From a virus (lineage: Duplodnaviria; Caudoviricetes): a stretch of 64,000 nucleotides of DNA. The DNA is taken from the IMG/VR virus record IMGVR_UViG_3300045771_000049, positions 1 to 64,000 of that record; one strand, given 5' to 3'. Positions 5,564 through 64,000 of the stretch are shown here, in pieces. Each line of letters begins with the position of its first letter. The first letter of the stretch is position 1. A program made the translations under genes and the position numbers. Below the pieces are notes generated by a model that saw only the letters and a list, made by a program, of their open reading frames with translations, had not been told where the DNA came from and made no database searches.

Positions 5564-6409
5564 TCAATCCATGATGTTCGGACTGTCCGGCCTGTCTGGA
5601 TCGAAACTGGCGTGCACCGAGCGCACTTGCTGGGGGCGGAAGGCCACGGCGATATCGCACATTGGCGCTTCGGCCCCACGATAGCCTGGATCAAACGTGT
5701 TCTTGATAATCGCGCCATCCCGTCGTCCACGCTTGGCGGAAACGAGCAAATCATTATACGAGACCTCGCGGTAAGTATCGCCATGCATGTCGAAGATCAG
5801 CGGTTTGACCAGTTTGAGAAACACCGGAAATACGACCGCTTTGCTGATGTGGCCGCTGGTCTCTAAATTCTTCATCCGTTGCTCTAGTTCTCTAACCTGC
5901 TTATGCAGTTCTTGATAGCGTGCGTTAGCAATACGGCTCTCTTCTGTGTCGTATTTGGCATCGATCGCATCGCGCGCCGCCCGATAGGCTTCCGGACTAA
6001 TTCGTTTCTTTTTCGGTCCGTCATAAAACCGTGCGTACCAAACCGCCTCTTCCTGGCCGCGCGCGTTCCAGATCGATAGCGCCGATTCCATCTCGGCTTT
6101 CAGAGCGACGATATCAGCGGCGTATTTGTCATAGATCGGTTTGGAGCTATCCAGCATAAACCGTTCGCTCCCGCCATAGCTGACCGCGACTTTGGGATCG
6201 GAGGTGAAGAAAAACCCCTTGGTGGCGGACTTGGCGCCGGTATTCCGGCCCAGCAGGGCAGGATCGAAGGCTTCGATATCGTGACCCTTGGAGCCATGAT
6301 ACCACACCCGCGACGTGTCAAAGCCCATCTGCTTGGCACGGCTCAATCGTTCGGTCGGATCAAGCACTGCCTCGATTAAACTGAGCCAAAGGCGAAAGTC
6401 GTTTTGCAT
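5564..6409 (-). CDS. ADP-ribosyltransferase-like protein (ART-PolyVal type) with N-terminal leader
   Basis: MQNDFRLWLSLIE; WYHGS...F...GFFFTSDPKVA, VFPVFLKL, DGAII, VAFRPQQVRS; TAAATA 5 nt before ATG. Confidence 0.8.
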   Translation of the reverse strand: MQNDFRLWLSLIEAVLDPTERLSRAKQMGFDTSRVWYHGSKGHDIEAFDPALLGRNTGAKSATKGFFFTSDPKVAVSYGGSERFMLDSSKPIYDKYAADIVALKAEMESALSIWNARGQEEAVWYARFYDGPKKKRISPEAYRAARDAIDAKYDTEESRIANARYQELHKQVRELEQRMKNLETSGHISKAVVFPVFLKLVKPLIFDMHGDTYREVSYNDLLVSAKRGRRDGAIIKNTFDPGYRGAEAPMCDIAVAFRPQQVRSVHASFDPDRPDSPNIMD

Positions 6410-6485
6410 ACGAATATTTAGACCTTGAACAGGCGTGGCCTGCCACGAATAGCAAGGTCTATTATTCTATCAGATGTAATCCAAG

Positions 6486-7196
6486 TTAAGGCGCTGACTC
6501 GATTAGTTTGCAGTAGGCAACGATCACCGGAATGCCCTTCTTGAACAGGTCAAAGGAGGTGGTCCCGATCGGTGACCAGCCACCATCGCTGTAACGATTC
6601 AGGTCTTCCAAGTACGAGTGAAAGGCGTCCAGGGTTTTTTCCATCTCCGCGATCGAGCCGAACCCACCGCCGAGATATTTCAGATGTTTGAGCATCTCAT
6701 CCTCGGCCTGGAGTCGCGAGATGTCATCGGACATTTCGGTTTGATTATGCGCATCGAAATAGCGTTCCAAATTGTAACGCGCATCGGACCAGTCGATCCG
6801 GTCTTTCTTGTCGTCCCACCACCCCGAGAGAGCCTCTTCGGCGCAACTCAATAGATTGACCGGGTGCAACGTGGCATCCGGATTGGTCTCGCGTTCATAA
6901 GCCAATTCTTCCTGGTTCGACGCGGTATCACGAGCGGTGTTGGCTTTGATTGCAGCCCGCACTTCGATTACCCATTCTTGGTTCCATGCACCTCGGAGAT
7001 CAAATTCCGAGCGCTGGGATGCGGTGGCAATCTGCATGGCTCTGGCCTTCAATGCCGTTACCGCCTGCTTGGCAGTGACCAGCAAGTTGGCTTGGCGCTC
7101 CTGCTCCTGACGTAATAGGTCACCGTGGCTCATCGGCGCCGGTTTTCCTGGTCTCTTGGCCTCGGTGACGGAAATCAAATGACGCATCGGGTGCAT
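6486..7196 (-). CDS. Hypothetical helical protein with leader-like N-terminus
   Basis: Start moved to MHPMRHLISVTE (AAGGA SD, TAAATA at 7222-7227). Confidence 0.7.
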   Translation of the reverse strand: MHPMRHLISVTEAKRPGKPAPMSHGDLLRQEQERQANLLVTAKQAVTALKARAMQIATASQRSEFDLRGAWNQEWVIEVRAAIKANTARDTASNQEELAYERETNPDATLHPVNLLSCAEEALSGWWDDKKDRIDWSDARYNLERYFDAHNQTEMSDDISRLQAEDEMLKHLKYLGGGFGSIAEMEKTLDAFHSYLEDLNRYSDGGWSPIGTTSFDLFKKGIPVIVAYCKLIESAP

Positions 7197-7392
7197 AGAC
7201 GAAATCCTTGCGATAATCAAGTATTTAACCGATGGTGTCTTGTCCACGCATCATCGGCTGCTAGATGGATCGAGCTACCATAACAGGAGGTTATTATGCC
7301 GATCAATCTCGAACCACAATATTGCTTTTGAGACCATGAGCAAGCGCCGGAGAGGGTTTTAAATGGCATCGATCCAAACGTCAGACCATGTA

Positions 7393-7474
7393 TTTTTCGT
7401 AGCCTGCCTAGCAGACTGTGTTGGTCCGGACACACCCTCACTTCCTCGTTATTATCGTAGCCCGACAGGACTGA
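7393..7474 (-). repeat. Two degenerate CRISPR-repeat-like hairpin units
   Basis: Minus strand TCAGTCC-TGTC-GGGCT-ACGATAAT and ACAGTCTGC-TAG-GCAGGCT-ACGAAAAA. Confidence 0.65.
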
Positions 7475-7483
7475 AAATATCGG

Positions 7484-7825
7484 CTAGTGGTGTGTTTGTT
7501 TTCGTTTTCTCAGCCACTCGGATCGAGACTGACTGAGCGGCTGGGTCGTAGGGGTGACGAGCTTGTTCTGCAAGGCGTAGAACATCGCTGCGGCACGGGC
7601 CGCATCCCGGCGTGACACATCTGCTGGGTCTGGGGGTTCGATGCCGCCGCAACAGGGGCATTCCCCGCGCAAATGGTTTAGCCCGCCGATCACCATGCGC
7701 ATGGCACATTCGATGTGGAGAAAGTTGCGTGTTCCGCCGGGATGTGTCTGAACGCAGGTGTAGGGATCATTTGGACCCACGGGTTCCGCGCAGTGCAAAC
7801 AGTGCAACATTGATCGTCGTCTCAA
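7484..7825 (-). CDS. Hypothetical Cys/His-rich protein
   Basis: CxxC, HxEC, CPCC motifs; overlaps stop of upstream ORF. Confidence 0.55.
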   Translation of the reverse strand: MRRRSMLHCLHCAEPVGPNDPYTCVQTHPGGTRNFLHIECAMRMVIGGLNHLRGECPCCGGIEPPDPADVSRRDAARAAAMFYALQNKLVTPTTQPLSQSRSEWLRKRKQTHH

Positions 7826-8935: not shown

Positions 8936-8974
8936 ACACGGCGGCGCATTCGGACCTTGATTAGTAAATACGCT

Positions 8975-9697
8975 ATGCGTTGTTATGAACTATTCGAAGC
9001 CATCCCGATCAATCAGCGGCGTGCTGCGAAGCAAGGCTTCACCGTCGATGCGTATCATGGCACGTCGGCTGATTTCGACCGGTTTGAGAACAAAGGGTTC
9101 GCGCAACTTGGCTACCATTTTGGCGCCACGCCCGATCAGGCGCATAGCCGGGCGATCGCCAATGGGCAGGACGAACCGGCCGGGCAACGCATCCTGCCGG
9201 TCAAGCTTCGGTTGAAGAACCCGCTGCGTATCCATGACATGGAAGATTGGTCGGCGGCCAGTGTTCTGTGGGGCTTGCAATATAGCGGCGACATGTCGCC
9301 CCCACTGGCAGCCCTGGTACGCCAGTTGCGCACCGCGTTTCATGACATGGATTTCGCGGCCCGTGCCGCCGCGATCGAGGCTGTGGGCGATCTCTATCGA
9401 CAACACAATTGGTCGCAGTCGCGCTGGGGCGAAAATCAGCCACCGCCCGAGGCCGAGGAAATGGAACGTGCGGTCCGCGCGAAACACGCCATCGCCAATG
9501 AAGACACCCAGGTCAAAATGCTGGTCGATGGTCTCAAGCGGCTGGGTTATGATGGGTTCGTCTATAACAATCGGTTCGAAGGCGATGGCGATAGCTATCT
9601 GGTGTTTGACAGCAACCAGATACGCGGGCGGTTTGCCAACTTCGCGCCGAGGAAAACCGCCAGCAATCGGCTGATGGACGGCCGGGCCATCCCGTGA
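8975..9697 (+). CDS. ART-PolyVal-like protein with leader
   Basis: TAAATA-CGCT-ATG; MRCYELFE; AYHGT..F..F...GYHFG, ILPVKLRLKNPL, GYDGFVY, YLVFDSNQIR. Confidence 0.8.
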   Translation: MRCYELFEAIPINQRRAAKQGFTVDAYHGTSADFDRFENKGFAQLGYHFGATPDQAHSRAIANGQDEPAGQRILPVKLRLKNPLRIHDMEDWSAASVLWGLQYSGDMSPPLAALVRQLRTAFHDMDFAARAAAIEAVGDLYRQHNWSQSRWGENQPPPEAEEMERAVRAKHAIANEDTQVKMLVDGLKRLGYDGFVYNNRFEGDGDSYLVFDSNQIRGRFANFAPRKTASNRLMDGRAIP

Positions 9698-9713
9698 TCG
9701 GTATCTGGAACAA

Positions 9714-10298: not shown

Positions 10299-10493
10299 TC
10301 AGGCGCGGCCCGCTTTGGGCGGCCGGTACGAGGTCTCGTCCACATCGAGCGGACGCACCTGTTTGAGATAGTCAGTAGGCGTCATCCAGACCATCCGGCC
10401 ACCCTGCGCACGGTAATTCAGATTACCGTGCCACTCGGTGTCAGGATCGGCCAGGGGGTAGCTTCGAGCTTCGATCAGGTCGCGATAGCGCAT
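10299..10493 (-). CDS. Short, possibly truncated leader-bearing protein
   Basis: TAGATA-GGATC-ATG; MRYRDLIE; 64 aa. Confidence 0.55.
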   Translation of the reverse strand: MRYRDLIEARSYPLADPDTEWHGNLNYRAQGGRMVWMTPTDYLKQVRPLDVDETSYRPPKAGRA

Positions 10494-12428: not shown

Positions 12429-13190
12429 ATGGACAACAATCTCAGAAAATGGATGCGTTTGTTAGAAACGCAAGATGATCCCGATGCGGAAGATCGGTTT
12501 GCATTGCCCGATGACGACCAGACCCGATCGCCGTACAAATCGAGTTACAAGCCAAAAGGCGGGTTTACGCCGGACAAAATCCGGAAACATTTGAAAACCA
12601 TTCCGACGTTATCCAGTTCGGCTTCATTCAAAAAACTATACGATGACAAAGGGCGCAGTGCGTTCGCCAGGGAAATTCGCAAGTTCGCGTCGCCTGCTGA
12701 ATTCGCCGATCATCTCTATTGGCATGGCACCGGCGGCCACGTCAGCGGCGGCTTGAAGCCGGGCAGCATTTTGCCCAAAAATAATACCGCGTTTGGCGGC
12801 GGATATGGCGAGGCTTACAGCGTCATCTCGCTGTCAAAATCGAAAAACATTGCCAGCAACTTCACCGCCCAATCATATCATGGGCAGGTCTATCCGGTGA
12901 TCCTTCGCAAAGGCGCCAAGGTCATTTTCCTGCCACAAGTGTCCGATTCGCAGGAGTTGGAAGATATCCTGCCGCAACTTTGGGCGCGTGGCATCGATGC
13001 CGTGAAGATCGGCGATTGGCGTAGCACACATAGCGAACAGGAAATCTGCATCGTCAATCCAAAAGCGATTATCCGGGGCAGTGGTGAGACCTTCGCGGTG
13101 TTTCAAAAACAGAAGTTTGCGCAGCCATCGGAGGCGGAAATCGCAGCGGTGTACGATCAGGCGATGAACCCGCCGACGACAGACGGCTGA
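12429..13190 (+). CDS. ART-like protein with leader
   Basis: TAAATA-TCGCA-ATG; MDNNLRKWMRLLE; YWHGT, ISLSKSKNIA, GIDAV, EQEICIVNP. Confidence 0.75.
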   Translation: MDNNLRKWMRLLETQDDPDAEDRFALPDDDQTRSPYKSSYKPKGGFTPDKIRKHLKTIPTLSSSASFKKLYDDKGRSAFAREIRKFASPAEFADHLYWHGTGGHVSGGLKPGSILPKNNTAFGGGYGEAYSVISLSKSKNIASNFTAQSYHGQVYPVILRKGAKVIFLPQVSDSQELEDILPQLWARGIDAVKIGDWRSTHSEQEICIVNPKAIIRGSGETFAVFQKQKFAQPSEAEIAAVYDQAMNPPTTDG

Positions 13191-13286: not shown

Positions 13287-13838
13287 ATGCAAAATAATCT
13301 TCGCGACTGGGTCAGGCTGGTGGAGAACAGTTTGCCAGCTTCGATCTGGCCGAAAGCCGCCCGTCGTCTGATTCAACAGATTGACTGGACAGGCGGTAGC
13401 GGTGAAGACGTCATGGCCTATCTCGGCTATGCGGACGGCGAGCCACCGCCAAACCCGAATTCCTCAGCCTTCAAGCGAAAACTTAAAGCCTGGGCGACCG
13501 AGCGCGTGATCAGCGCCTTTGAGGAAATTGAATGGCGATTCAAGGCGGACGTGATTCGCGTCTATCGGATGATCGCCGCGCCCCCGGATTGGACACCTGA
13601 CCCGACGCGACATCCAGGCGAGTATTGGTCTTGGGATGAAAAAGCTGCCGAGGCCCATTGGGGGGATTTTGGCTCCGGCCATGTAAAATGGCTGATGATC
13701 ACGGATGTGCGTAAATCGCAAATCGATTGGGAACAAACCCTGGCAGCCAATGGGGCGCCGGGTTATGAGAGCGAGTGTGAGATCACCGTGCGTGCGGACG
13801 CGCCGATCAAATTGCTCGGCTATAAACAAGTCAAATGA
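13287..13838 (+). CDS. ART-like protein (R-S-E type) with leader
   Basis: TAAATA-ATCG-ATG; MQNNLRDWVRLVE; VYRMI, GEYWSW...A, ECEITV. Confidence 0.7.
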   Translation: MQNNLRDWVRLVENSLPASIWPKAARRLIQQIDWTGGSGEDVMAYLGYADGEPPPNPNSSAFKRKLKAWATERVISAFEEIEWRFKADVIRVYRMIAAPPDWTPDPTRHPGEYWSWDEKAAEAHWGDFGSGHVKWLMITDVRKSQIDWEQTLAANGAPGYESECEITVRADAPIKLLGYKQVK

Positions 13839-19567: not shown

Positions 19568-19654
19568 CAGGACGACCCATAATGATCAAGCTGCGCATTC
19601 TGATTCTCACCAATCTGGCTCGTCACCTTCAGGTCTATTTAGCATGATGGGATT

Positions 19655-19707
19655 AGCGCCATTCATCCGCGAGGCTAAAGACCTCGCGGTTTTCTGGCGC
19701 GTTCTTG
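19655..19707 (-). mobile_element. Orphan IS200/IS605 left-end remnant
   Basis: GCGCCATTCATCCGCGAGGCTAAAGACCTCGCGGTTTTCTGGCGC closely matches the reverse complement of the IS end at about 42362-42407, with compensatory stem changes. Confidence 0.75.
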
Positions 19708-19718
19708 ATAAATAAGCC

Positions 19719-20168
19719 ATGCTGATAGAAAGTCTTTTTCGAGAGGATACGCCGGTTCGCGCACCGGCCGGTTTCGATCTAAAACTGTATCACGGGACGG
19801 ACAAGGTATTCACCGAGTTTCTTCCGTTCAGTCATTTTGGCACCGAAGCGCAGGCTCAGATGCGGAATTCCAAGCAGATCATTCCGGTGTACGTTCGAGG
19901 CACCAAATTTAAGCGGTTGCGCGATATCGGTTCTTGGTCAAAAGCCAAAATGGCGCAGATGCGGGCATTGGCTCGCCAGGGCTATGACGGCGTGATCTAT
20001 TTGAATCGGTATGAAGGCATCCCGTTCGAAACTTTCCAGGCCGCCTATAAACAGGTTCCGCTGGATCGTCTTGATCGCCTGTCGGATAGCCAATTTAAAA
20101 AGCTCATCCCCGTAGCCGAGGATTCCTATATTATTTTCGATCCGCGCAACGTCTGCAGAGCCTCTTAG
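19719..20168 (+). CDS. ART-PolyVal-like protein with leader
   Basis: TAAATA-AGCC-ATG; MLIESLFRE; LYHGT..F..F..FSHFGT, GYDGVIY.N.YE, SYIIFDP. Confidence 0.8.
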   Translation: MLIESLFREDTPVRAPAGFDLKLYHGTDKVFTEFLPFSHFGTEAQAQMRNSKQIIPVYVRGTKFKRLRDIGSWSKAKMAQMRALARQGYDGVIYLNRYEGIPFETFQAAYKQVPLDRLDRLSDSQFKKLIPVAEDSYIIFDPRNVCRAS

Positions 20169-20231
20169 TCGTGGGCGTCCGGCGATAAATATCGCCATGA
20201 ACAACGCGGTAGCGAATTTGAGGCGATCCAC

Positions 20232-21038: not shown

Positions 21039-21126
21039 TTTGCATATTCCTGTTTGCTGTTATTTAGCGGGGGTCGTAGTCGGGCATCTGGCGTAAATAC
21101 GGTATGACCAACGAAATACGAGGCTG

Positions 21127-21927
21127 ATGCGATATCATGAACTCATAAGGGAAGCGGCTGGTCGGAGCCACATTCGCGCCTATCATGGAACCACGCATGA
21201 TTTTGCGCGGTTTCAGATGAAAGCGGTCGGCAAAGGCGAAGGCTTCCAATCGTTCGGCTACGGTCTGTATTTCGCTGAGAATTACGAGGTCGCCCGGTTC
21301 TATGCCGACAAGATCGGCGCCGCCAAGCCGCCGGACGATCAACATGCCGAGGTGATCTATGAAGTCAACATCGCCGCCAATCTCGATAGTTTTTTGGATT
21401 TGGATGCGAAGCTGACGGATCAATCGCGATATGTGCAGGACGCATTGAGCGAAATCCTCTACATCGACAATGAACCGATGCTGAATGGCAAACGGTTCTA
21501 CGACTGTTTTCCCGAGGTGGCTCCGATCATACGCATCAAAGCCCGACGTGAATGGATGGCAGCACATGGTGATCTCGGGTCGTTTCAGTCGGCGTTGCGA
21601 CAGGTCGTGGCTACGGCCTCAGAGCAAGTCAAGGTATCGGTTGAGACGATTATTGCCGATGTGCGCGCTGCAAACCGGACGACAGCGCAGGTTATCAAGC
21701 CGGGATTGGGATCGCATCTCAGAGACGAGTTGCAGAGTATGACTGGTTCGCCCAAGGCGGTGTCGCAATGGCTGCGGAAACGCGGGATCAATGGGAACAC
21801 ATATTTTGACGAAGGGTCGCGCGGCATTGATCTCGCGCCGGGTCAGCCACCAACGCGTAACTTTGTGGTGTTTGATGCGCGGCAGGTTCGTGTAGTTGGC
21901 AAAACCTATCCCCGAGCAGCTAAATAG
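21127..21927 (+). CDS. ART-PolyVal-like protein with leader
   Basis: MRYHELIRE; AYHGT.HDF..F...GKGEG.QSFGYGLYFAE, GINGNTY, NFVVFD. Confidence 0.82.
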   Translation: MRYHELIREAAGRSHIRAYHGTTHDFARFQMKAVGKGEGFQSFGYGLYFAENYEVARFYADKIGAAKPPDDQHAEVIYEVNIAANLDSFLDLDAKLTDQSRYVQDALSEILYIDNEPMLNGKRFYDCFPEVAPIIRIKARREWMAAHGDLGSFQSALRQVVATASEQVKVSVETIIADVRAANRTTAQVIKPGLGSHLRDELQSMTGSPKAVSQWLRKRGINGNTYFDEGSRGIDLAPGQPPTRNFVVFDARQVRVVGKTYPRAAK

Positions 21928-21932
21928 ACGCC

Positions 21933-22046
21933 ATGCGTTATCATGAAATCATCGGCGAGGCAGAAAGCTCGAAACAGGATAAGGCTGCGCTTGAGGCCGA
22001 GGTCGAGACCCTCCGCGATGCGTTGGAAGCGCGATATCGTCGCTAA
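21933..22046 (+). CDS. 37-aa leader-bearing peptide or truncated cassette
   Basis: TAAATA-GACGCC-ATG; MRYHEIIGE; its stop TAA is part of the next TAAATA. Confidence 0.55.
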   Translation: MRYHEIIGEAESSKQDKAALEAEVETLRDALEARYRR

Positions 22047-22053: not shown

Positions 22054-22998
22054 ATGGTGAATGATTTGAGACGGTGGATGGAGTTGATGGAGGGGGATGA
22101 TCTCTATGCGTCGTCCACATGGGATATTGTTCTCCCGTCGATTTTCTACCGCGCCTCGAAAACCGCGATATCATCGAGCTACCTGACCCGGCTATGGCGT
22201 CACCCGGACGCAGCGTTGCCGAGTACGATCAATCAGTTATTGAATGACGGCACTGTTGATCGGGTATCCGGCCTGAGTTCAAACACGCCATTCAAGATCA
22301 GTCGCACTTACTCGGGGATGAGCAATTGGGGATTTGGTGCGTATTTCGCATCAGACCTTGATTGGGCACGTCGGTATGGGGACTGCGTCACCGCTGTCAG
22401 TGTCGAACCGCAGGCCATCCTGGCGATCCGTGCAGATGATTTTGCCCAACGCGTCACCGGTACTCCTGGCGGAGAATTGCACCGCCGACTTACCGTGAAA
22501 GCCGGTGACCGAATGGCCGACCAAGCCTCGGCGATGGGCGCGGTGGTGCGGGGCATGAAGCGCACCGCTCGGGCGCTCTATGTCGCCACCGAAGCCGAAC
22601 GCGGACAAATCTGCGTGTTTGGCGTGCAAGCCATATATCCACGATTTTATTTCGAAATAAAATCGGGCTTGACGGAAAACGGCGACCGGCGAAAGGGGAA
22701 ATCTCTCCCTGAAACGGGTCACACAGATAAGTTTGTGACGATCTATCGGGCGGTTCTGGCCACCGTGATGGGCTTTCAGCCGATGGATTATGTGACGCTC
22801 AATCGCCGATGGGCCATCGAACATGCCGAGCATGTTGCGGCTGTGGAGGGCGAAAACGCAACGGTCTTGCGCGCCTTGGTTCCGGCCAAGGATGTCTATG
22901 AAGCATACAACCCCGGCGAATACTTCTATGATGGACCTGCGATTACCGGGCGACCGATCACAGGGGCGGGAATGAAGCCATACGTCGCCGAGGGCTAA
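22054..22998 (+). CDS. Tandem ART-like two-domain protein with leader
   Basis: TAAATA-TGGC-ATG; MVNDLRRWMELME; domain 1 FYRA...GFGAYFASD..WARRYG; linker LTE; domain 2 VTIYRAV...DYVTL..WAIEH. Confidence 0.7.
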   Translation: MVNDLRRWMELMEGDDLYASSTWDIVLPSIFYRASKTAISSSYLTRLWRHPDAALPSTINQLLNDGTVDRVSGLSSNTPFKISRTYSGMSNWGFGAYFASDLDWARRYGDCVTAVSVEPQAILAIRADDFAQRVTGTPGGELHRRLTVKAGDRMADQASAMGAVVRGMKRTARALYVATEAERGQICVFGVQAIYPRFYFEIKSGLTENGDRRKGKSLPETGHTDKFVTIYRAVLATVMGFQPMDYVTLNRRWAIEHAEHVAAVEGENATVLRALVPAKDVYEAYNPGEYFYDGPAITGRPITGAGMKPYVAEG

Positions 22999-23044: not shown

Positions 23045-23701
23045 ATGCGTTACCGTGAAATTATGGCCGAGACGGAGGATGAAGGTGAACTGACGGCGGT
23101 GCCGTACGACCACATCGATCCTCTCAGCAGAAAGCCTATGGTTAGCTTTCGCATTTTCCGCGATGGCGAGGAAGTGCGCACGATCTACGGCCATCACGTC
23201 AGCACGGCCGAAGAAGCCATTCAAAAATACCATTCCATGGAGGCCTGGGAACGCCGACAGGCAGAAACCCCCGTCACACCTAAGGCGCCTGCGCGGAGAA
23301 TACGGTCACCACGGCCCGACATTCGGGTGTGGATCGTGCCCGCCAAGGTGCGCAAAATGATCGAGGATGGGGATGATGAACCGGATGCCTATCTCTATCA
23401 CGTGACCAGTTGGCCGCGCGCTCGACAGATCATCCAGCAAGGGTTGCTGGTGGACCGAGCCCCGATGTTCTCTAATTATCAATTCAACACGGGATCAAGG
23501 GTCTTTCTCACGGAACGCGACGGGGTGCGTTTCTGGGCATGGAAAATTGAACAACATCTACAGCATAACTTCGATCGGCCGCCGCCCGTCGCAGTTCTTC
23601 GGGTGCATCGCGCTGATGTTGAACATTTGCTTCGCCCTGACGCGGTTGGGACAAAAGATGCCAGAGCATCATGCTATTACATTGAGACGGATTTTAAATA
23701 A
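23045..23701 (+). CDS. ART-like protein with leader
   Basis: TAAATA-TGACCT-ATG; MRYREIMAE; LYHVT...I..QGL, RVFLT. Confidence 0.72.
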   Translation: MRYREIMAETEDEGELTAVPYDHIDPLSRKPMVSFRIFRDGEEVRTIYGHHVSTAEEAIQKYHSMEAWERRQAETPVTPKAPARRIRSPRPDIRVWIVPAKVRKMIEDGDDEPDAYLYHVTSWPRARQIIQQGLLVDRAPMFSNYQFNTGSRVFLTERDGVRFWAWKIEQHLQHNFDRPPPVAVLRVHRADVEHLLRPDAVGTKDARASCYYIETDFK

Positions 23702-23905
23702 CCACGCCCAGACATACCAGTGGACAGTAGGCCGCTTGACGCCAAAATCCGGTCATGTTCCGTGATTCAGAAACCGCTCAAAGCTACATGGAAAACCGTT
23801 TATGGCCGGATGGCCCGCGATGCCCGACATGCGGCACCGGAGACCGGATCGCCACAATCTGGTTCGAAAATCACACGCCTTTCGTGGTAAATAAGGTTAT
23901 GGAAA

Positions 23906-24569: not shown

Positions 24570-24781
24570 CGCGTTATCTCCCGTCCATTTTGGTGTGGTT
24601 GAACAGCCAAGGTGCCACCGGCCGATGGTTTTCGATTCATGAAAGATGCGCTGTCGAAGTCAATGTTTCATTTTTCACGTTGTTGTGTTGGCGACAAAAA
24701 CTCGCCCGTCATCGCGATCATGGCTAAATAATTCATGCAAAATGTCCTGAGACGGTGGTTGGCAGAACTGGCGACATCGCA

Positions 24782-25381
24782 ATGAGCAACGAATTACGCC
24801 GCTGGATGACCTTGTGCGAGACCGATGAAGGTGATCCCTTTTTCACTAATTTGGTCGAGAACTGCCGCGCGATTGGCAGATGGTATCAAGGCTGGTTCAT
24901 GCGCTCGTCCGATCAGGAGACCTTGCAACGCACCATTGCTGCGTTTCGGCTGGCCGCCCCACTACAGCGGTTCGTCGGAACGCAGCGCCTGTGGCGTGTG
25001 GTGCCTGCCTCGGCGGTGCAGGGGATGACCCTCGTGCCGACTGACAAGCCGCTCCAATCGTGGTCAGAGACTGAATATGGTGCACGAATGTTTTTCGGGT
25101 CCGAGCTATCGAGCCGGGTGACCGAACCTTATGTGCTGACCGAGGCGGAAATCGACGGGTCTTGGATCGTGTTCTCGAACGCCCATTTGGCCCTGTTGAT
25201 GGATCGGCTGGCCTCGATGAGCGACGATGATGATCGTGCGGCCCGTGCTTGGAATCTCCTGGAGGGAATGGTCCGCCCGCATGAGTACCAGCATGAGGTC
25301 GTAGTGTTATTGCCTGATCTCAGGCCGCTCAAGCTCAGCGCGACGCCCGATGGCATGCTGGGCAAACATCTCGCGCCATAG
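24782..25381 (+). CDS. ART-like protein (R-S-E type) with leader
   Basis: MSNELRRWMTLCE; LWRVV, LQSWSET..GA..F, QHEVVV; preceded by overlapping mini-ORF 24735-24785. Confidence 0.7.
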   Translation: MSNELRRWMTLCETDEGDPFFTNLVENCRAIGRWYQGWFMRSSDQETLQRTIAAFRLAAPLQRFVGTQRLWRVVPASAVQGMTLVPTDKPLQSWSETEYGARMFFGSELSSRVTEPYVLTEAEIDGSWIVFSNAHLALLMDRLASMSDDDDRAARAWNLLEGMVRPHEYQHEVVVLLPDLRPLKLSATPDGMLGKHLAP

Positions 25382-26178: not shown

Positions 26179-26895
26179 ATGGAAAACGATTTGCGGCAAT
26201 GGATGCGGTTGGTCGAGGGCAACCTTACGCGCGACGAATTTGACGCGGCAGTGGTGCATCGATTCAAGCAGAATGCCAGTGGGTCATTGGTCATTCATCA
26301 CGGCACTGACAGCTACGGTGCGCAAAGCATTCGCGACGAAGGCTTCTTTCGAGCCGGTGCAGACTGGCCGAGTTTCTTTACCACAAATAAGAAAGAAGCA
26401 GAAGATTATGCCCGAATCCGTGCAAAACAGGCGCAGGTCCGAAATCCGGATGCCAAACCAATCGTCATCACCCTAACTGTGCCAAAATATGCAGTGACCA
26501 AAAATGGTGCAGGCGAAATTGAGACGGTTCCTCTGATCCCACTCTACTTTCAGAATGGACGTGGTTACCTGCGGGACGAGGATATAGTTGCTGCGGTTGC
26601 CAAATGGAATCCGGATGATCCTCGCGATAATTATGATGCCTATCAAGCGCAGAGCGGGGATCAAACGTCAGGAGCCTTTGAAGCGCACCGGCAGCATCTT
26701 GACATGGAAGTCCCCCGTATCGGTCCTGACAACAAACCGACAAACGAGATGGTCACCTTGGGATCGATGGGCTTTTTTGAGTTGCTGCGCCTTCATGATT
26801 GGCTCAAGCGCAAGCGCACCCCCCATTACAAGACAATGCGGGATGCAGTCTATGCTCGTGGCATGAAGCTTCAGAACGACCGGTCAAGGGGTTAA
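26179..26895 (+). CDS. ART-like protein with leader
   Basis: TAAATA-TGGTCT-ATG; MENDLRQWMRLVE; IHHGT...I...GF, FFTT...AEDYA. Confidence 0.75.
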   Translation: MENDLRQWMRLVEGNLTRDEFDAAVVHRFKQNASGSLVIHHGTDSYGAQSIRDEGFFRAGADWPSFFTTNKKEAEDYARIRAKQAQVRNPDAKPIVITLTVPKYAVTKNGAGEIETVPLIPLYFQNGRGYLRDEDIVAAVAKWNPDDPRDNYDAYQAQSGDQTSGAFEAHRQHLDMEVPRIGPDNKPTNEMVTLGSMGFFELLRLHDWLKRKRTPHYKTMRDAVYARGMKLQNDRSRG

Positions 26896-27356: not shown

Positions 27357-27758
27357 ATGCGCTACGCGGAAATCTTGACCGAAGGCTCGAAAACGGTCGC
27401 TGAAAAATATATCACCGATGTTTATCGGCGACTGAAACGGCTGGGTCACGAGAACATTGTCGCCTATCTTGAGCCAGAGGATGATCGGCAGGTATCGCTC
27501 GACAGCATTGACGCTGCCGTGCAAGGCAAAGGCTTTGGTGAACGAGCGATGAAGTTGATCACGTCGCAAGCTGACCGCTACGGTGTCACCCTCACCTTGG
27601 TCGCATCTGGCAACGGTGACCCATCTGAAGACCGACTGGTACGCTGGTATACACGACATGGGTTTGTCATGTCTGAAACCGATTATGATCCTGATGACGA
27701 GCCGAATCAAAATACCTACACTGAGATGGCACGGGCGCCTGTAGCGGCGTCACCATGA
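27357..27758 (+). CDS. GNAT-fold acetyltransferase-like protein with leader
   Basis: TAAATA-GGTTC-ATG; MRYAEILTE; QGKGFG...M, LVRWY.RHGF. Confidence 0.78.
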   Translation: MRYAEILTEGSKTVAEKYITDVYRRLKRLGHENIVAYLEPEDDRQVSLDSIDAAVQGKGFGERAMKLITSQADRYGVTLTLVASGNGDPSEDRLVRWYTRHGFVMSETDYDPDDEPNQNTYTEMARAPVAASP

Positions 27759-27795
27759 CCCCCTTTTTCTGGCGCGTTCTTGATAAATATCCATT

Positions 27796-28557
27796 ATGAG
27801 AGTCCATGAGTTAATCGAAGCTGCCCTCGCGCACGATAACGCTGCCCTCAAGCAGCTTTACGATGCGTTCAACCACCGTCTGTTCGACGGCACGCTGCCT
27901 GAAATCCCCGTTGAATATGCAAAATTGAAAACCGTGGGTGGTGTCGTTCATACCAAGGTTCGTCGTATTCCGGGCCAGATGATCCGCTCATTGAGCCGAT
28001 ATTCCCCCGACACGCATGAAATCGTCCCAGGATCAATGCGTTTGCAAATCTCATCGATTTATCAGCGCGAAGAGACCGCGATCCACGGTCTCCTTGTGCA
28101 TGAGATGATCCATGTCTGGGTCATCGCCGTCGAGCACGATTATAATGACGACCACGGTCCCAAATTCCTCGCCAAGCGTCGTCAGTTGGCTGCCATGGTG
28201 GATTTCCCGATCCCACTCACCGATAGCGTCACCGGTCTGCAATTGACCACCACAGCCACCCGCAAGGTGGGTGCGATCCTCCTGACAAAGCCGGACAAGG
28301 TCAGCATCGCTGTGATGAGTGAAGCGTATATGCGCCAGCATCTCGAAGCGATGAAGGAGCGGTGGACCTACTTTGTCAGAAACAAATACACAAACAAGGT
28401 CGAGTTCATCATCACCCATGGCAAGCTCGAAGCCGTCTATCCCATCCAGCGCAAAAAGCAGTTTAGCGATATTGCCTTCTACATCGTCAAGGACCAGAGC
28501 CTGCTCGATGAGGCTCTGGCCAATGCCGAGGTGCTGGCCGTCTTGCGCAGCGAGTGA
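27796..28557 (+). CDS. SprT-like zinc metalloprotease with leader
   Basis: TAAATA-TCCATT-ATG; MRVHELIE; FN..LF.G.LP, HEMIH, HGPKF. Confidence 0.85.
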   Translation: MRVHELIEAALAHDNAALKQLYDAFNHRLFDGTLPEIPVEYAKLKTVGGVVHTKVRRIPGQMIRSLSRYSPDTHEIVPGSMRLQISSIYQREETAIHGLLVHEMIHVWVIAVEHDYNDDHGPKFLAKRRQLAAMVDFPIPLTDSVTGLQLTTTATRKVGAILLTKPDKVSIAVMSEAYMRQHLEAMKERWTYFVRNKYTNKVEFIITHGKLEAVYPIQRKKQFSDIAFYIVKDQSLLDEALANAEVLAVLRSE

Positions 28558-31830: not shown

Positions 31831-32145
31831 ATGCGATATTATCAGTTCATGGAGGTCGATACGTCGGCCTCAGCGCCCATGGGGCCTCGGATCATCTCCG
31901 ACCCCGTGCCGGGTGCCACGCCGGGGAAACTGGTCAGTGACATTGCGCAAGCGGCATTGGCTCGACGACCCGACCGCAAACACGTCATGAAACTGGTTCT
32001 TCAGCTACTCAAAACCGCGCTCGCCAGCGGGCGAGGATCGCCGACCTTTAAGACTGCGATCGCCAACATCGCGTCCATGCAAATTGCCCTGGGTGACAAA
32101 GTACCCGAGCTTCGTAGCATCGATCTGACCATCTTCGGCGGCTAG
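31831..32145 (+). CDS. Hypothetical protein with leader
   Basis: TAAATA-GAGACC-ATG; MRYYQFME. Confidence 0.7.
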   Translation: MRYYQFMEVDTSASAPMGPRIISDPVPGATPGKLVSDIAQAALARRPDRKHVMKLVLQLLKTALASGRGSPTFKTAIANIASMQIALGDKVPELRSIDLTIFGG

Positions 32146-42813: not shown

Positions 42814-42855
42814 TCTTATTTACACCAGATTGCCATGTGTTGTATAAATAGAAAT

Positions 42856-44106
42856 ATGAAAGCGTTCAAGTATAGACTGAAGCCGACTAGCGAGCAAGAG
42901 GGCGCATTGCGTCAAACTGGCGGTGCTTGTCGTTGGCTTTGGAATAAGATGCTCGAACAGAACAAAGCCAAATACGAACAAGAAAAGAAATTTGTCTTCA
43001 AGTATGATTTGGTCGGGTCTCTACCAAAACTGAAAGAGCTACATCCGTGGCTGAAGGAAATGCCTAGTCAATCGTTGCAGCAGAGATGTTGGGATTTGGA
43101 TACCGCTATGAAGCGGTGCTTCAAGTCGGGATTTGGATTCCCGAAGTTCAAATCGAAAGATGATGAAAACGACACGTTCCGTATCTCCCAGACCAATGGG
43201 CATATTAAAGTCACACGGCAGGCGATCAAGCTACCAAAATTAGGATGGATCAACTGGCGGCGTCATCGACCCATCGATGGCAGATTGATGTCTGTCACCA
43301 TCAAGCAGGAGGGCATTCGCTGGTATGCTATTTGTTTGTGCGATACAGGCGAGGTGCTGAACCAGATCAGCGTTTGTGAAGATGACATCGTTGGTATTGA
43401 TCTTGGATTATCCTGCTTTGCCATGACCAGCGATGGCGAACTATTTGAGAAGCCAGCCCAATGCTACCAACGACTCAAACATGAGCAACGGAAGTTGAGT
43501 CGGATTGACGAGTCGAACAAGAAACAAGGCATTACCAAGTCCAACAGAAGGCTCAAACAGAAACAAATATTAGCCAAAACGCATCGTATTATTAGCGATC
43601 AGCGATATGATTTTCATCACAAGACGAGTAGAGAGATAGCCAATTTCTATAAGTTTGCTGGCATGGAAGACCTACATATCAAAGGAATGATGAAGAACCA
43701 CTGCTTAGCAGGTTCAATAGCTAAGGCAGGCTGGCACTCATTCCGAATGATGATACGATACAAACTCAAAGACCAAGGCGGCGATCTGTTACTGGCGGAT
43801 CGGTTCTATCCAAGTACCAAGCTGTGTTCGAGTTGCGGTCATAAGCAGGCGATGACGCTTGCCGATCGCACGTTCACATGCGAATCCTGTGGGATGGAGA
43901 TGAACCGAGATGCCAATGCGGCGATCAATTTGAAGCTGTGGGCGATGAGAGAGATGAATAGGGCTGGGACAGTCCGAATCTACGCACGGGGAGATACCGC
44001 CATCGGGGACGAAATACGTAAGTCGTCTAGATGTGTATCATTGAAGCGTGAAAAGTTCCGAGACAATCAGGTCTTGGAAGCCGCGACCTCTTTAGGGTCG
44101 CGGTAG
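42856..44106 (+). CDS. tnpB: RNA-guided endonuclease TnpB
   Basis: MKAFKYRLKPT, GIDLG, EDL, CSSC/CESC, RD.NAAINL; TATAAATA 5 nt before ATG. Confidence 0.95.
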   Translation: MKAFKYRLKPTSEQEGALRQTGGACRWLWNKMLEQNKAKYEQEKKFVFKYDLVGSLPKLKELHPWLKEMPSQSLQQRCWDLDTAMKRCFKSGFGFPKFKSKDDENDTFRISQTNGHIKVTRQAIKLPKLGWINWRRHRPIDGRLMSVTIKQEGIRWYAICLCDTGEVLNQISVCEDDIVGIDLGLSCFAMTSDGELFEKPAQCYQRLKHEQRKLSRIDESNKKQGITKSNRRLKQKQILAKTHRIISDQRYDFHHKTSREIANFYKFAGMEDLHIKGMMKNHCLAGSIAKAGWHSFRMMIRYKLKDQGGDLLLADRFYPSTKLCSSCGHKQAMTLADRTFTCESCGMEMNRDANAAINLKLWAMREMNRAGTVRIYARGDTAIGDEIRKSSRCVSLKREKFRDNQVLEAATSLGSR

Positions 44107-44667
44107 TTCACATGAATATCGTTCCGATATGTTTCCGCTATCCAGTTTATCCTGGTCATAGTTCGCGAATTCAGATCGAATTTGACTTGGATTGAATACT
44201 ACGTATTGCGTAATGGGCGTTTTTCCATCCGGACTATCGGTTAACGTGTCCGGCAGGACGATCCCATCATAGCCATTGGCTTGGAGAAATTGACGGGCAG
44301 CAGGGTAATCGGTCGTGTCACCATTCATCCGGATTTGCCGTCCGCCGACCACGTAGTCGGGTTTTCTGAATGTGGTGAAACGATCGACCAGATCACGGAT
44401 TTCATTGTAGCTCTTGATCACCCAGGGATGCTTCAAGCGCAACCGCACCGGCATGACCGACGCGCCCTGTCCCCGTGCGGCAAAATCGGCAAACCCTGAA
44501 GCCGCCTCGGGATTATCCGTAAACCAGATGCCCAATGGACCTTCGCGCGATCCACTGCCCAGCTTACTGCCCATTTCAAAGGTGTGAAAATCTTTGTTAG
44601 TGCCGTGAAATGCTTTGATATTGAACCCAAGCTGTTCGGGACGGCCGATTAATTCCATGAGCCGCAT
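44092..44667 (-). CDS. ART-PolyVal-like protein; last codons supplied by the IS
   Basis: MRLMELI; AFHGT..F..F...GIWFTDNP..A, VMPVRL, GYDGIV, YVVFNPSQIRS. Confidence 0.82.
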   Translation of the reverse strand: MRLMELIGRPEQLGFNIKAFHGTNKDFHTFEMGSKLGSGSREGPLGIWFTDNPEAASGFADFAARGQGASVMPVRLRLKHPWVIKSYNEIRDLVDRFTTFRKPDYVVGGRQIRMNGDTTDYPAARQFLQANGYDGIVLPDTLTDSPDGKTPITQYVVFNPSQIRSEFANYDQDKLDSGNISERYSCELPRP

Positions 44668-60977: not shown

Positions 60978-61577
60978 ATGCGCTCGCGTGAATTCCTTGA
61001 AGCGTTATCGATACGGGCACAGACCGAGACCCCCGAGTTTAAACGCTGGTTCGGGGCTTCGAAGGTGGTGGATGCCGAGGGACAGCCGCTGATCGTCTAT
61101 CACGGAACCACCAAGGATTTCGAGGCCTTCAAACTGCCCGGCCGCAAAGCCAGGGGCGGTAATGCGATCTTCTTCGCCACCGCGCCGAGTACGGCATCGT
61201 ATTTCAGCCGTAACATGGCCAATGCGCGAGTGCTTCCCGTCTACGTTCGCTTGGAAAACCCGTTTGACTTCGCGAGTGAGGCGGCATTGGCATTGATCGA
61301 GCCGTTCATCCGGAAGAACTTTGCGGCATTATATCCAGGTGCATTGTTCGGTCCGGATGCGGCCATCAGCTTCTTGCGCGGCGGCGACTATGGCAGTTTG
61401 GAAAAACCAGCGGTGCGCGCATGGATGGTCAAGCGCGGCTATGACGGGTTTTGGACCAACGAGCAGGCTGGTGGCCAGCGCACGCTCGGGGTCTTTAGTC
61501 CCAATCAAGTCAAATCAGCGATTGGCAATCAGGGTCAGTTCAATCCGGCTGATGACCGGATCAACGAGGCGCCGTGA
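60978..61577 (+). CDS. ART-PolyVal-like protein with leader
   Basis: MRSREFLE; FKRWFG.SKVVD..G.PL.VYHGT, IFFA, GYDG, VF.PNQVKSAIGN.GQF; GGAGG SD. Confidence 0.88.
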   Translation: MRSREFLEALSIRAQTETPEFKRWFGASKVVDAEGQPLIVYHGTTKDFEAFKLPGRKARGGNAIFFATAPSTASYFSRNMANARVLPVYVRLENPFDFASEAALALIEPFIRKNFAALYPGALFGPDAAISFLRGGDYGSLEKPAVRAWMVKRGYDGFWTNEQAGGQRTLGVFSPNQVKSAIGNQGQFNPADDRINEAP

Positions 61578-61907: not shown

Positions 61908-62921
61908 GATTGCTCCACGAAACGGAATTCCAAGTTGACGCAGTCAGGATTATGGGTCGCCCTGCTCCTGACGATCCGCCTCTGCGTCCCATAAGCGCGC
62001 TACTTCCAAGGCGTCTAGGCGTTGGCCGATATCCCGGCAACGTTCCGCATGGCGGCGATTGACCTGCGCCAGCACACGACACAGCAAGGGATTGGTTCCG
62101 GCAGGATCGATTTTCTTGCCACCAGAATTACTTTCCTCATCCATGGACGGTATCTTCCACAATTGCCTCGATCGCATGGCGTGCGCGGACACGCCAATAG
62201 GCCCGCGTGTCCCGATCGATGTTGCCCCAATTTGGCATATAACCACGTAGATCGTGGGTGAGACCAGTCAGCATGGCTTCTGCCGTCGCCACTTGATATT
62301 CATTCAAGAGGGCGATAATGGATACAGGTTCCAGCATGATCGCAATCCGCATTGCAGGAGATACTATACGCCCCCGTATTCGGCGCCGACGAACAGCGTT
62401 ATGCGATCGCCGTCGTGATCGGGCGGAAACGTGATCCGCAGTGTGGGAAGTGTGCCGTTGATGGCGGGATCATCCAGTATGATCTCGAAATGATCAACCA
62501 TCTTGCGGAGGTGCGCTACCATTTCAGCGTTGGTCATTGTCATCTCTCCGTTTGCTGTTTTTTAGGTCCGGGGTGAGCCATCCTCATTGCGCGTGATTGC
62601 GATGTTTGTCCACATGGCGCATTCCCGCAGCTTGCGAAGAACATATGTCCGATCGGCGCCTTCGGGCACATGTAATCGTCAAACGTCTGCCTTGTTGAGT
62701 GCATGGTATGATCCTTAGCGGCGGATCGCGTCCCACACGATGGCGCCGATGCCGAAGCCCATCGCGACACAACTGCCGCCGATCGATGTCCACTGCGCGG
62801 CGGCTTTTGACACGAAGAAGAACACGGGTGGAATTGCCGCGATAGTTACCAGAAGGATGATTACGAACCACCCCATCACAGGATGGGCAATGATGCGGGG
62901 TGGTCGCATCTTGATCTCCGT

Positions 62922-63248
62922 TCATGATACGCGTATTGTTGCCTTGGGATGACACGCGGCGCACAGCAAAATCTCCTCAAGGAATTGCAGCGCGGTTGGA
63001 TAGTCGCCCCACCTTGGCGGGGTCATCGGGATGTAGATGTCGGGGTTTGCTGCCATATGGGACACCGCGACTCGCAGCCTTGGCAGGGCGTCCGATGCCA
63101 GCGTGCCATGCAGATCATGGATGCCATCGCCACCCAGCGCGCGCCGGAACATCGGCCCGCAGTTGTATGTGTAGTTCAAGTCGTCATTGCCGATAATGGC
63201 AGGTTCTGCGCCGCCCGTGTCAATCTCAAAATGCACATCATAACTCAT
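62922..63248 (-). CDS. Hypothetical phage protein
   Basis: GGAGG SD; NYTYN...MF..ALG...WG.Y..AL.FL. Confidence 0.7.
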   Translation of the reverse strand: MSYDVHFEIDTGGAEPAIIGNDDLNYTYNCGPMFRRALGGDGIHDLHGTLASDALPRLRVAVSHMAANPDIYIPMTPPRWGDYPTALQFLEEILLCAACHPKATIRVS

Positions 63249-63427
63249 GCGTGCCTCCGCAAGACGAGTTCAGGCGCCGACCAGATGCTCGACAAAGCGC
63301 GCCAATTCCGAGGCGAGGTCGTGGGTTTCTGCCGTCATGTATTGCAGGCCCATATCGCGCTGGCGCTCATCGGCCTGCTGCACATATTTGCGCGTGAGAA
63401 ACTCAAAGATCGCCGTCTCGAAGTCTG

Positions 63428-63763
63428 TCATGGTCTGGCTTCCCTATGCCAATCGATTTTAAGGTTTGGATAATTGCCTCGTAAAATGCTATTCAACAAC
63501 TCCGGTTCGTCACTGGCAGCCCGATCCGACACTTTAAGCGGATTCTTGATTGACAGATAAACCGGGATGATGTGTTGGTTTTCCACTGGATCGCTGCTCC
63601 CAAGACGTTTACGCTCGCCTTGCAGAAACCTGAGTCGAATATTCGCAGCGCTGGCTGTTCCAAAATGCGAACCGGCGTGGAAGTCGTGAAAGACCTGATC
63701 GGCGCCATGAAACATCATCCGAGGCTTGCCGTTATTACTCACCTTTGCGGTATTATGTAGCAA
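63428..63763 (-). pseudogene. Truncated ART-PolyVal-like gene
   Basis: GKP..MFHG...F..F..GSHFGT, IIPVYLSIKNPL, but lacks the GYDG/VF C-terminal half. Confidence 0.6.
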
Positions 63764-63794
63764 ACACCACCATCCCTCCGAGCTAAATACTATA

Positions 63795-64000
63795 ATGAAT
63801 GGGATCAGAAAATGGCTTCGACTGGTAGAAGCTGGACTTCCAAACGACTTCCAATTCTCAAATTGGGGTTACTGGATCGAACCGAGTGGAAAATTCGTGC
63901 CAGTACCGCGACATGGACATTACACAGTCTATCAAATAGGTGATCATGCATTCGCAGAAGGTCGCATTCGTGTCACAGCGGTTACAGACCCATCAACCGT
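63795..64000 (+). CDS. Leader-bearing protein, truncated by window end
   Basis: TAAATA-CTATA-ATG; MNGIRKWLRLVE. Confidence 0.7.
   Translation, partial: MNGIRKWLRLVEAGLPNDFQFSNWGYWIEPSGKFVPVPRHGHYTVYQIGDHAFAEGRIRVTAVTDPST

Follow-up and report, generated by a model that had tools for sequence, protein, structure and literature searches.

N-terminal leaders on some 35 genes of a giant T4-related phage, read as a large-scale variant of the T4 capsid-targeting system

A phage first attacks host defences with the proteins that it packages and injects, and those of giant phages have, to our knowledge, been found only through virion proteomics. In T4, IPI, IPII and IPIII reportedly carry a capsid-targeting sequence (CTS) that is removed by the prohead protease gp21 (Mullaney and Black 1996; Repoila et al. 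1994). T4 Alt is a head-packaged, injected ADP-ribosyltransferase (ART) that is processed at ITE-6. In phiKZ, 201phi2-1 and SPN3US, a relative of gp21 cuts ejection or inner-body proteins at [SAG]-x-E (PMC5694885). Among the papers on phage ARTs and polyvalent proteins that we consulted, the grounds given for packaging are fusions and gene neighbourhood rather than a leader (PMC9503650), and we found no description of a shared leader tag in the literature on the Atu_ph07/Rak2-like group.

The DNA studied here belongs to a giant T4-related phage represented by a 152-kb, probably partial IMG/VR contig, whose first 64,000 nt are the window. Across the contig we counted about 35 leader-bearing genes, with less than one expected by chance. 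We conclude that they form a variant of the T4 CTS system on a large scale and infer packaging, cleavage after the Glu and injection in this phage; that the leaders themselves are capsid-targeting propeptides of the T4 kind we consider likely. As in T4, a short N-terminal peptide ending in hydrophobic-x-Glu is the only feature common to diverse cargo (PMC3012670), and both phages have a protease of the gp21 family, a gp23-type shell and a late-promoter box, the last a candidate in our phage. Type 2 leaders (MRYHEIIGE/A, MRYHELIRE/A; the slash marks the cleavage point, predicted in our phage) match, almost residue for residue, the N-terminus of T4 IPII and IPIII (MKTYQEFIAE/A), and are also close to those of gp24 (MAKINELLRE/S) and gp22 (MLKEQLIAE/A); in the same T4 record (NC_000866), ipI has ...ITE/A, alt MELITE/L and gp23 ...FLTE/AEIGG. 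T4, however, tags a handful of genes, against about 35 on this contig alone. Our phage also has two or more other classes of leader (Type 1, with a Trp, and class 3), enzymes, chiefly ARTs, make up its cargoes, a large share of its mRNAs are apparently leaderless, and it is known from sequence alone.

Other described systems share parts of this picture. Alt is likewise an ART, its N-terminal propeptide is very short, and one leader of the contig resembles it (MLIESLFRED against MELITELFDED), but Alt is a 682-aa protein of the Alt/VIP2 family, whereas the contig cargoes are small ART-PolyVal or other H-Y-E-type folds in many copies. The polyvalent proteins of phages and conjugative elements (Iyer et al. 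2017, PMC5512222) have the same domain repertoire and predicted delivery with the DNA, although there one giant polypeptide replaces a separate gene per domain with its own tag and promoter. The phiKZ, 201phi2-1 and SPN3US heads also hold many internal proteins with N-terminal propeptides cut after Glu, as predicted here, but those propeptides are mostly 79-127 residues or longer, they have a small P3 residue where the leaders here have a hydrophobic one, and a short shared tag is unreported (PMC5694885). Encapsulins too have short cargo-loading peptides at a protein terminus, by which diverse enzymes enter an HK97-fold shell; unlike the leaders, these peptides are usually C-terminal and uncleaved, and the shells hold no DNA and deliver nothing to other cells.

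The sequence-only reading had claimed a shared N-terminal peptide of two main types on about 20 genes, and 20 of the 20 starts that it listed translate accordingly (Table 1; genes are named by the position of their start codon). Type 1 reads M-x-N-x-[LF]-R-x-W-x-x-L-x-E, and Type 2 M-R-x-x-[EDQ]-hydrophobic-x(1-2)-E, also summarised as MRYxE[LI]xxE. Both types hold as proposed, but 7196, 19719, 32150 and 44667 are looser and 21933 is a stub. We place 32150 in a third class, R-x-[FYW]-I-x-I-I-E, that is present in relatives too; 44667 is the weakest variant and, with 68523 and 70479, has no clean hydrophobic-x-E at the usual distance. Hydrophobic-x-Glu ends all leader types and is mostly followed by a small residue (A, T, G, N, D or V in 21 core leaders). 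A motif count gave a strong excess: six-frame regex searches of the whole 152-kb contig (ORFs of at least 30 aa) found 9 Type 1 and 12 Type 2 matches, against means of 0.05 and 0.42 in 60 first-order Markov simulations, and the same search of the reversed contig sequence found no match to either type. Matches with a sizeable ORF start 0-42 codons past an in-frame stop, with the one exception of an internal Type 2 match within the scaffold gene.

Table 1. Leader-bearing genes in the window. The slash marks the predicted cleavage point; SD, Shine-Dalgarno.
Coordinates	Strand	Leader	Cargo	Remarks
5564..6409	-	Type 1 (MQNDFRLWLSLIE/A)	ART-PolyVal, 281 aa	PF18760 E 3e-10; TAAATA 5 nt before ATG
6486..7196	-	Long variant, 13-residue form ending VTE/A (MHPMRHLISVTE/A)	Without assignment	TAAATA 25 nt upstream and SD-like AAGG
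8975..9697	+	Type 2 (MRCYELFE/A)	ART-PolyVal, 240 aa	TAAATA spacer 4
10299..10493	-	Type 2 (MRYRDLIE/A)	64-aa ORF	Variant box TAGATA
12429..13190	+	Type 1 (MDNNLRKWMRLLE/T)	Modelled ART-superfamily fold	No match in Pfam search
13287..13838	+	Type 1 (MQNNLRDWVRLVE/N)	Without assignment, 183 aa	TAAATA spacer 4
19719..20168	+	T4-Alt-like (MLIESLFRED)	ART-like	Pfam E 2.7e-4, below family cut-off
21127..21927	+	Type 2 (MRYHELIRE/A)	ART-like	PF18760 29.4 bits, just under 31.2 cut-off
21933..22046	+	Type 2	Stub ORF, 37 codons	Stop TAA is part of next gene's TAAATA box
22054..22998	+	Type 1 (MVNDLRRWMELME/G)	Modelled ART fold and C-terminal domain	Structure model
23045..23701	+	Type 2 (MRYREIMAE/T)	Without assignment	
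24735..24785	+	Type-1-like (MQNVLRRWLAEL...)	16-codon stub	Start 4 nt past TAAATA; TGA overlaps next gene's ATG
24782..25381	+	Type 1 (MSNELRRWMTLCE/T)	Without assignment	
26179..26895	+	Type 1 (MENDLRQWMRLVE/G)	Weak ART-PolyVal (HHGT)	
27357..27758	+	Type 2 (MRYAEILTE/G)	Weak GNAT-like	Below Pfam threshold
27796..28557	+	Type 2 (MRVHELIE/A)	SprT-like metallopeptidase domain	
31831..32145	+	Type 2 (MRYYQFME/V)	Without assignment, 104 aa	
32150..32719	+	Class 3 (MRNFITIIE/A)	ART-like LYHTT motif	
44092..44667	-	Weak variant (MRLMELIGRPE)	ART-PolyVal	E 2.7e-18
60978..61577	+	Type 2 (MRSREFLE/A)	Full ART-PolyVal unit	E 2.4e-25; ordinary SD, no TAAATA box at start
63795..64000	+	Type 1, one residue shorter (MNGIRKWLRLVE/A)		Gene continues to contig position 64316

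The gp21-like protease, whose location had also been proposed as a check, lies outside the window at contig positions 141408-142037 (Peptidase_S77, PF03420, gp21-type prohead protease, E 7.5e-31). A coiled-coil protein occupies the gp22 position on the contig, and the major capsid protein is T4-type and gp23-like, with L-M-E/A at its predicted maturation site, matching the position of T4 FLTE/A; this L-x-E site is kept in six phages. Structure models show the leader as a helix at residues 3-13, with a low pLDDT of about 50-58, followed by a disordered linker and then a folded domain.

We propose that, late in infection, a gp55-type transcription system would read (C)TAAATA boxes and, with the start codon about 5 nt past the box in most leader genes, the mRNA would begin at or beside the AUG. 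The first 8-14 residues, with hydrophobic-x-Glu at their end, would fold into a short amphipathic helix that would dock the protein onto a scaffolding core of gp22 type as the gp23-type shell closes around it. A gp21-type prohead protease, the same that would trim the capsid protein, would then cut the leader after the Glu, and the mature enzyme, usually of the ART superfamily but also a SprT-like peptidase or another protein, would remain in the head with the DNA and enter the next host at infection. We infer each of these steps, from transcription start through docking and cleavage to injection. Promoter and leader may further be an exchangeable unit, in which case any gene placed behind it would become a packaged protein. 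More tentatively, and as a reading that we hold less likely than not, we suggest that the leader classes are distinct addresses (for place, copy number or release order in the head) and that the late-promoter-leader cassette, translated from mRNA with no 5' leader, is a mobile plug-in that makes any gene packaged and injected. If so, the whole 'injectome' of 380-580-kb megaphages would be predictable from sequence, and the tag would be usable to load chosen proteins into jumbo-phage heads.

A relative, Agrobacterium phage Atu_ph07, has a published virion proteome of 140 of its 714 proteins (Supplementary Table S5, PMC6102473). It includes the products of every one of the 23 annotated genes that bear equivalent leaders, which would happen by chance with a probability of 1e-17, or 2e-9 with the paralog cluster counted once; the preparation was PEG-purified and also included a few non-structural proteins, and the table reports presence in the virion rather than head location or cleavage. 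Their leaders are Type-2-like (M[RK]W.[QD]L.E; gp53-64, gp43, 381, 408, 482, 487, 548, 561 and 672) or Type-1-like (gp33, gp206 and gp594), gp206 being the second gene downstream of gp204, which encodes the prohead protease.

The leader could instead be what a shared partner binds in the producing cell, for example a chaperone or immunity factor that neutralises toxic NAD-using enzymes, or it could be an autoinhibitory or degradation tag, and have no part in head-loading. Most cargoes are indeed ART-superfamily enzymes, potentially harmful to the producer, and docking is a generic use of short amphipathic helices. Yet the same leaders stand on non-ART cargo such as SprT, they resemble the T4 CTS and share their cleavage motif with the capsid protein, and the 23 Atu_ph07 genes all appear in the virion proteome, so that we find this explanation improbable. 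Equally unlikely is that the leader proteins enter the prohead as core- or scaffold-like components, degraded or kept for structure, and not as delivered effectors. T4 gp22, gp67 and gp68, which have similar N-termini, are destroyed by gp21 (PMC5694885), and leader genes of Atu_ph07 and Phosso lie directly after the protease gene or one gene beyond. However, the Atu_ph07 leader proteins were recovered from virions at 12-65% sequence coverage and were therefore not degraded, and the cargoes have enzyme folds typical of injected polyvalent proteins.

Read as packaging tags, a few swappable N-terminal peptides on about 35 small genes would make the probable set of packaged proteins of this phage legible from its sequence. 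A recognisable tag would let such proteins be listed in uncultured megaphages as well, and would account for many of the dozens of unexplained 'virion-associated hypothetical proteins' of jumbo-phage proteomics. As a short peptide that would load proteins into large capsids, it is also a possible tool.

The leader genes encode proteins of 64-444 aa, mostly single-domain; a large polypeptide that joins two or more effector domains, as in polyvalent proteins, was not found among them. ART-PolyVal (PF18760) scores above the gathering threshold in 6409, 8975, 44667, 60978 and 76375, and below it in 21127, 26179, 19719 and 72982, the cargo of 19719 being tied by BLASTP to other ART paralogs. At least 16 cargoes belong to the ART superfamily, some recognisable by fold alone. 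This dominance makes 'unrelated', the word of the sequence-only reading, too strong: about half of its cargoes are ART-PolyVal and two of its 'unknowns' model as ART folds, although the SprT-like cargo and others do differ. Its GNAT call falls below the Pfam threshold (E 0.004). To call the system a split-up counterpart of polyvalent proteins was apt, since giant polyvalent proteins are filled with this very cargo domain; the 60978 cargo finds its best matches in proteins of 1,000-7,000 aa, where as many as 22 ART stretches were matched. Polyvalent proteins would thereby be tied to a split, tag-based delivery route.

The abundance of ARTs could mean that the leader is no modular tag but just an N-terminus conserved throughout a single, expanded family of paralogs, but this is very hard to maintain when the closest ART pairs within the contig differ in leader type, the SprT-like and other cargoes have no profile similarity to the ART set, and homologs of the 12429 cargo, like those of the 22054 cargo (54-74% identity), have leaders of Type 1, Type 2 or class 3. 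Because homologous cargo has different leader classes in related phages, the leader appears to be a portable tag, as had been proposed. The tests made here all favour the sequence-only reading. Close homologs of the SprT-like 27796 protein retain their leader.

Hardly credible, finally, is a nucleic-acid constraint on the 5' coding sequence, for transcription initiation or leaderless-mRNA translation: 21 of the roughly 35 leader genes do start 4-7 nt past a TAAATA with no SD, but synonymous codons vary freely, leaders also follow ordinary SD sites (60978, 76375, 124866), and those of Atu_ph07 generally follow SD-like purine runs, none with TAAATA 4-7 nt from the start. Conserved Arg is written CGC, AGA or CGG and conserved Leu TTG, CTC, CTG or TTA, and conservation across leader codons is 0.58 at third positions versus 0.87 at second positions. 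The leaders are thus selected at the peptide level, not at the DNA level.

The window has 20 copies of the box in the form TAAATA-N3-7-ATG, where 1.1 would be expected, with a spacer peak at 5 nt, and TAAATA is also found 17-35 nt ahead of large structural genes. In T4 the late box runs from -13 to -6, and in Aeh1 it reads CTAAATA (PMC1524935). We take TAAATA as a candidate late-promoter box of T4/Aeh1 type. This reading rests on analogy, since gp55, gp33 and gp45 were not found on the probably partial contig; a gp55 gene is present in Atu_ph07. The position of most leader-gene starts, 4-7 nt past the box, implies that their late mRNAs would be leaderless, and apparent leaderless late mRNAs together with promoter-leader cassettes offer a testable model of arsenal shuffling. 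Two starts have additional features: a terminator, a 22-nt box and TAAATA lie upstream of 19719, and 21127 is preceded by a leaderless uORF of 7 codons, coupled to it through TGATG.

The N-terminal peptides listed by the sequence-only reading are real, all 20 of the 20 starts translating as stated, and they are far more frequent than simulated sequence would give. Among ORFs of at least 30 aa on the whole contig, the strict Type 1 pattern (M-x-N-x-[LF]-R-x-W-x-x-L-x-E) opens nine and the strict Type 2 pattern (M-R-x-x-[EDQ]-hydrophobic-x(1-2)-E) opens twelve, against Markov simulation means of 0.05 and 0.42 and none in the reversed sequence. Matches on sizeable ORFs have an upstream in-frame stop 0-42 codons away, the sole exception being a Type 2 match within the scaffold gene. 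With looser forms included, the contig has ~35 leader-bearing ORFs, of which 19 full genes and two stubs fall in the window. The leader is conserved as a peptide signal and not as a DNA signal: its conserved positions use synonymous codons (CGC, AGA or CGG for Arg; TTG, CTC, CTG or TTA for Leu; GAA or GAG for Glu), and conservation averages 0.87 at second but 0.58 at third codon positions. Ordinary Shine-Dalgarno sites precede the leaders of the genes starting at 60978, 76375 and 124866; in the related Agrobacterium phage Atu_ph07, leader genes generally have Shine-Dalgarno-like purine runs, and a TAAATA box at 4-7 nt from the start codon is absent from all of them.

The window is the first 64 kb of one contig of 152,147 bp (G+C ~55%), whose major capsid protein is of T4 type, with 76% identity to that of Sinorhizobium phage Phosso and 63% to those of Atu_ph07 and Pseudomonas phage PA5oct. 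Megablast of 12 kb of the contig against the phage collection gave zero matches, and hence no close cultured relative; by tblastn, T4 gp55, gp43, gp44, gp45, gp46, gp47 and gp62 had no credible match on the contig. Because relatives and cargo homologs sit on genomes or contigs of 287-576 kb, the contigs with homologs of its genes measuring 378-576 kb, the contig is most likely one piece of the genome of an Atu_ph07/Rak2-like jumbo or mega phage.

By analogy with T4, we read the leader set as a capsid-targeting system of the T4 kind that a jumbo-phage lineage has on a large scale and in several classes, one that combines predicted leaderless late promoters with a load consisting mainly of ART-type enzymes. 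Head-internal proteins of T4 reach the prohead via capsid targeting sequences (CTS) of 10-20 residues, and gp21 cleaves after Glu, Alt being processed at ITE-6 (PMC5694885); the internal proteins of T-even phages are a diverse set in which the CTS is the only shared part (PMC3012670). The Type 2 leaders of the contig (MRYHEIIGE/A, MRYHELIRE/A, MRYREIMAE/T, the slash marking the predicted cut) are the T4 leader pattern minus one residue, and the leader of the gene at 19719, MLIESLFRED, is similar to the N-terminus of T4 Alt. A matching site of the hydrophobic-x-Glu type ends every leader, and the capsid protein of the contig reads ...RLME/AATNG at the place of the T4 maturation site, an L-x-E that is kept in Phosso, Atu_ph07, PA5oct, Serratia phage BF and a Vibrio phage. 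Given this capsid site, the gp21-type protease of the contig would be expected to be T4-like in specificity. A 628-aa protein (window 15061-16947) that carries a family-2 glycosyltransferase domain and matches a methyltransferase below threshold starts with MKLIE/V, which could be a minimal leader like those of T4 gp67 and Alt, or chance.

Features of the contig and T4 processing sites used for comparison (slash, cut position after Glu)
Feature	Location	Strand	Detail
gp21-type prohead protease	contig 141408-142037		PF03420, E 7.5e-31
gp20-type portal gene, intein splicing domain inserted	window 539-3571	(-)	product 1010 aa
3937-aa ORF	window 44667-56480	(-)	ice-binding-like domain, residues 608-807
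Leader-only stub	window 21933-22046		directly before 22054
Leader-only stub	window 24735-24785		directly before 24782
Leader-only stub	contig 124772		directly before 124866
Leader-only stubs	contig 73725, 79122, 76538	(-)	
T4 ipII / ipIII N-terminus	T4 record		MKTYQEFIAE/A
T4 ipI N-terminus	T4 record		MKTFKEF...ITE/A
T4 alt N-terminus	T4 record		MELITE/LFDED
T4 gp24 N-terminus	T4 record		MAKINELLRE/S
T4 gp22 N-terminus	T4 record		MLKEQLIAE/A
T4 gp67 N-terminus	T4 record		MEGLIE/A
T4 gp23 site	T4 record		...FLTE/AEIGG

Packaging of the leader proteins is well supported, by this analogy and by the virion proteome of a relative. A Type-2-like leader, M[RK]W.[QD]L.E, is found in Atu_ph07 on gp53-gp64 and on gp43, 381, 408, 482, 487, 548, 561 and 672, and a Type-1-like leader, (D)LRK[FY].NI[LI].E, on gp33, gp206 and gp594, the gene for gp206 being the second one downstream of gp204, which encodes the prohead protease. 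Five related jumbo phages gave no match to the strict Type 1 DNA pattern; once F or Y was allowed for W, Atu_ph07 and Phosso did. ESI-MS/MS of Atu_ph07 virions detected 140 of 714 proteins (PMC6102473, Supplementary Table S5). All 23 of the annotated leader proteins, a count that leaves two further matches on unannotated ORFs outside, are in that list, most of them identified by 3 to 31 unique peptides, and the table, made from PEG-purified virions, records presence in the preparation rather than location or processing (PMC6102473). The probability of obtaining this by chance is 1e-17, or 2e-9 when the gp53-64 paralogs are counted once. Among these virion proteins, gp381 combines the leader with an ART-like YHGS motif.

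About a dozen cargoes match ART-PolyVal (PF18760) by Pfam, five of them exceeding the gathering score; the cargo of 27796 has an SprT-like domain and that of 27357 a sub-threshold GNAT match. PHROGs gave no function for most of the unknown cargoes. For the genes at 22054 and 12429, AlphaFold models (domain pLDDT ~90 and mean 81, respectively) show a leader helix at residues 3-13, then a disordered linker, then the domain, and their Foldseek matches are mainly to the ART superfamily, although weak (E about 1e-3 to 1e-2, TM 0.2-0.5): PARP and tankyrase domains, the diphtheria toxin catalytic domain, a RES toxin and a cyanophage pre-ejectosome chain. The cargoes had been described as unrelated, and by profile comparison six of them have no similarity to the ART set; however, NAD-using ART folds dominate, and in view of the fold matches of 22054 and 12429 the word is overstated. 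The cargo of 60978 matched 14,191 proteins, the best being polyvalent proteins of 1,000-7,000 aa in which as many as 22 ART stretches are matched. That such giants might be polyproteins cut at leader-like sites was rejected, their units being joined by NPDIRF-type linkers and not by L-x-E junctions.

Comparisons of cargo sequences, by BLASTP and hhalign, point to the leader being a portable tag. The ART cargo pairs that are closest within the contig differ in leader: 124545 (Type 1) and 8975 (Type 2), which are 35% identical, and 76375 (Type 1) and 60978 (Type 2). Homologs of the 22054 cargo, at 54-74% identity, begin with leaders of Type 1 (MAHKLRHWISLVE), Type 2 (MRYHELTE) or a third class (MRHYINIIKE, MIRKYIDIVKE), the same three classes that open homologs of the 12429 cargo, and genes with TAAATA and Type 1 and Type 2 leaders adjoin one another on IMG/VR contigs. 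In two fused two-domain homologs of 22054-22998 (P0012 and P0014), the junction before the shared domain, ...(E/P)LTES, resembles the end of a Type 2 leader, as if the proteins had internal protease sites or had been fused at leader boundaries. Directly before full leader genes lie leader-only stubs (ORFs of 16-49 codons), which may be small packaged peptides or scars left when promoter-leader cassettes were exchanged.

The window has 20 cases of TAAATA with an ATG 3-7 nt further on, versus 1.1 expected, and of the 84 TAAATA sites on the contig 31 precede an ATG at a spacer of 4-6, with a peak at 5. The late box of T4, TATAAATA, occupies -13 to -6, and that of phage Aeh1 is CTAAATA (PMC1524935). 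With the T4 position and a 5-nt spacer, transcription would start on the A of the ATG, and the leader genes resemble late genes whose mRNAs are leaderless. Other TAAATA sites, a second class, lie 17-35 nt upstream of large, probably structural genes, the same arrangement as in T4. Some boxes have an ATG 4-5 nt on that opens a tiny ORF of 1-12 codons (window 3636-3649(-), 20186-20232, 21094-21129 and 23888-23910; contig 68282-68320), which is ATG-TAG ahead of the portal gene; the real gene has its start overlapped by the stop of the tiny ORF or by the tiny ORF itself (ATGA, TGATG), an arrangement that suggests translational coupling of leaderless mini-ORFs to late genes. A 22-nt box, TCTGGCGCGTTCTTGATAAATA, is present in three identical copies (window 19650-19718 and 27750-27795; contig 70400-70478), 3' of a G+C-rich hairpin with a T run in two of the three, a terminator-plus-late-promoter cassette reminiscent of the PeSL shuffling motifs of T4-like phages.

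Among neighbouring genes, the 3937-aa ORF was rejected as a polyvalent protein, its ice-binding-like domain being the sole Pfam match, and is probably a giant fibre or surface protein; an ART gene (44092-44667) begins at its last base. A row of PrkA-like, YeaH-like and SpoVR-like genes (contig 113803-120696(-)), outside the leader finding, is unusual for a phage. An IS200/IS605-type element (window 42415-44106), with divergent genes for a Y1 transposase TnpA and a TnpB/Cas12f-like OrfB, lies within a low-G+C patch (0.49), and a TAAATA box precedes each of its genes.
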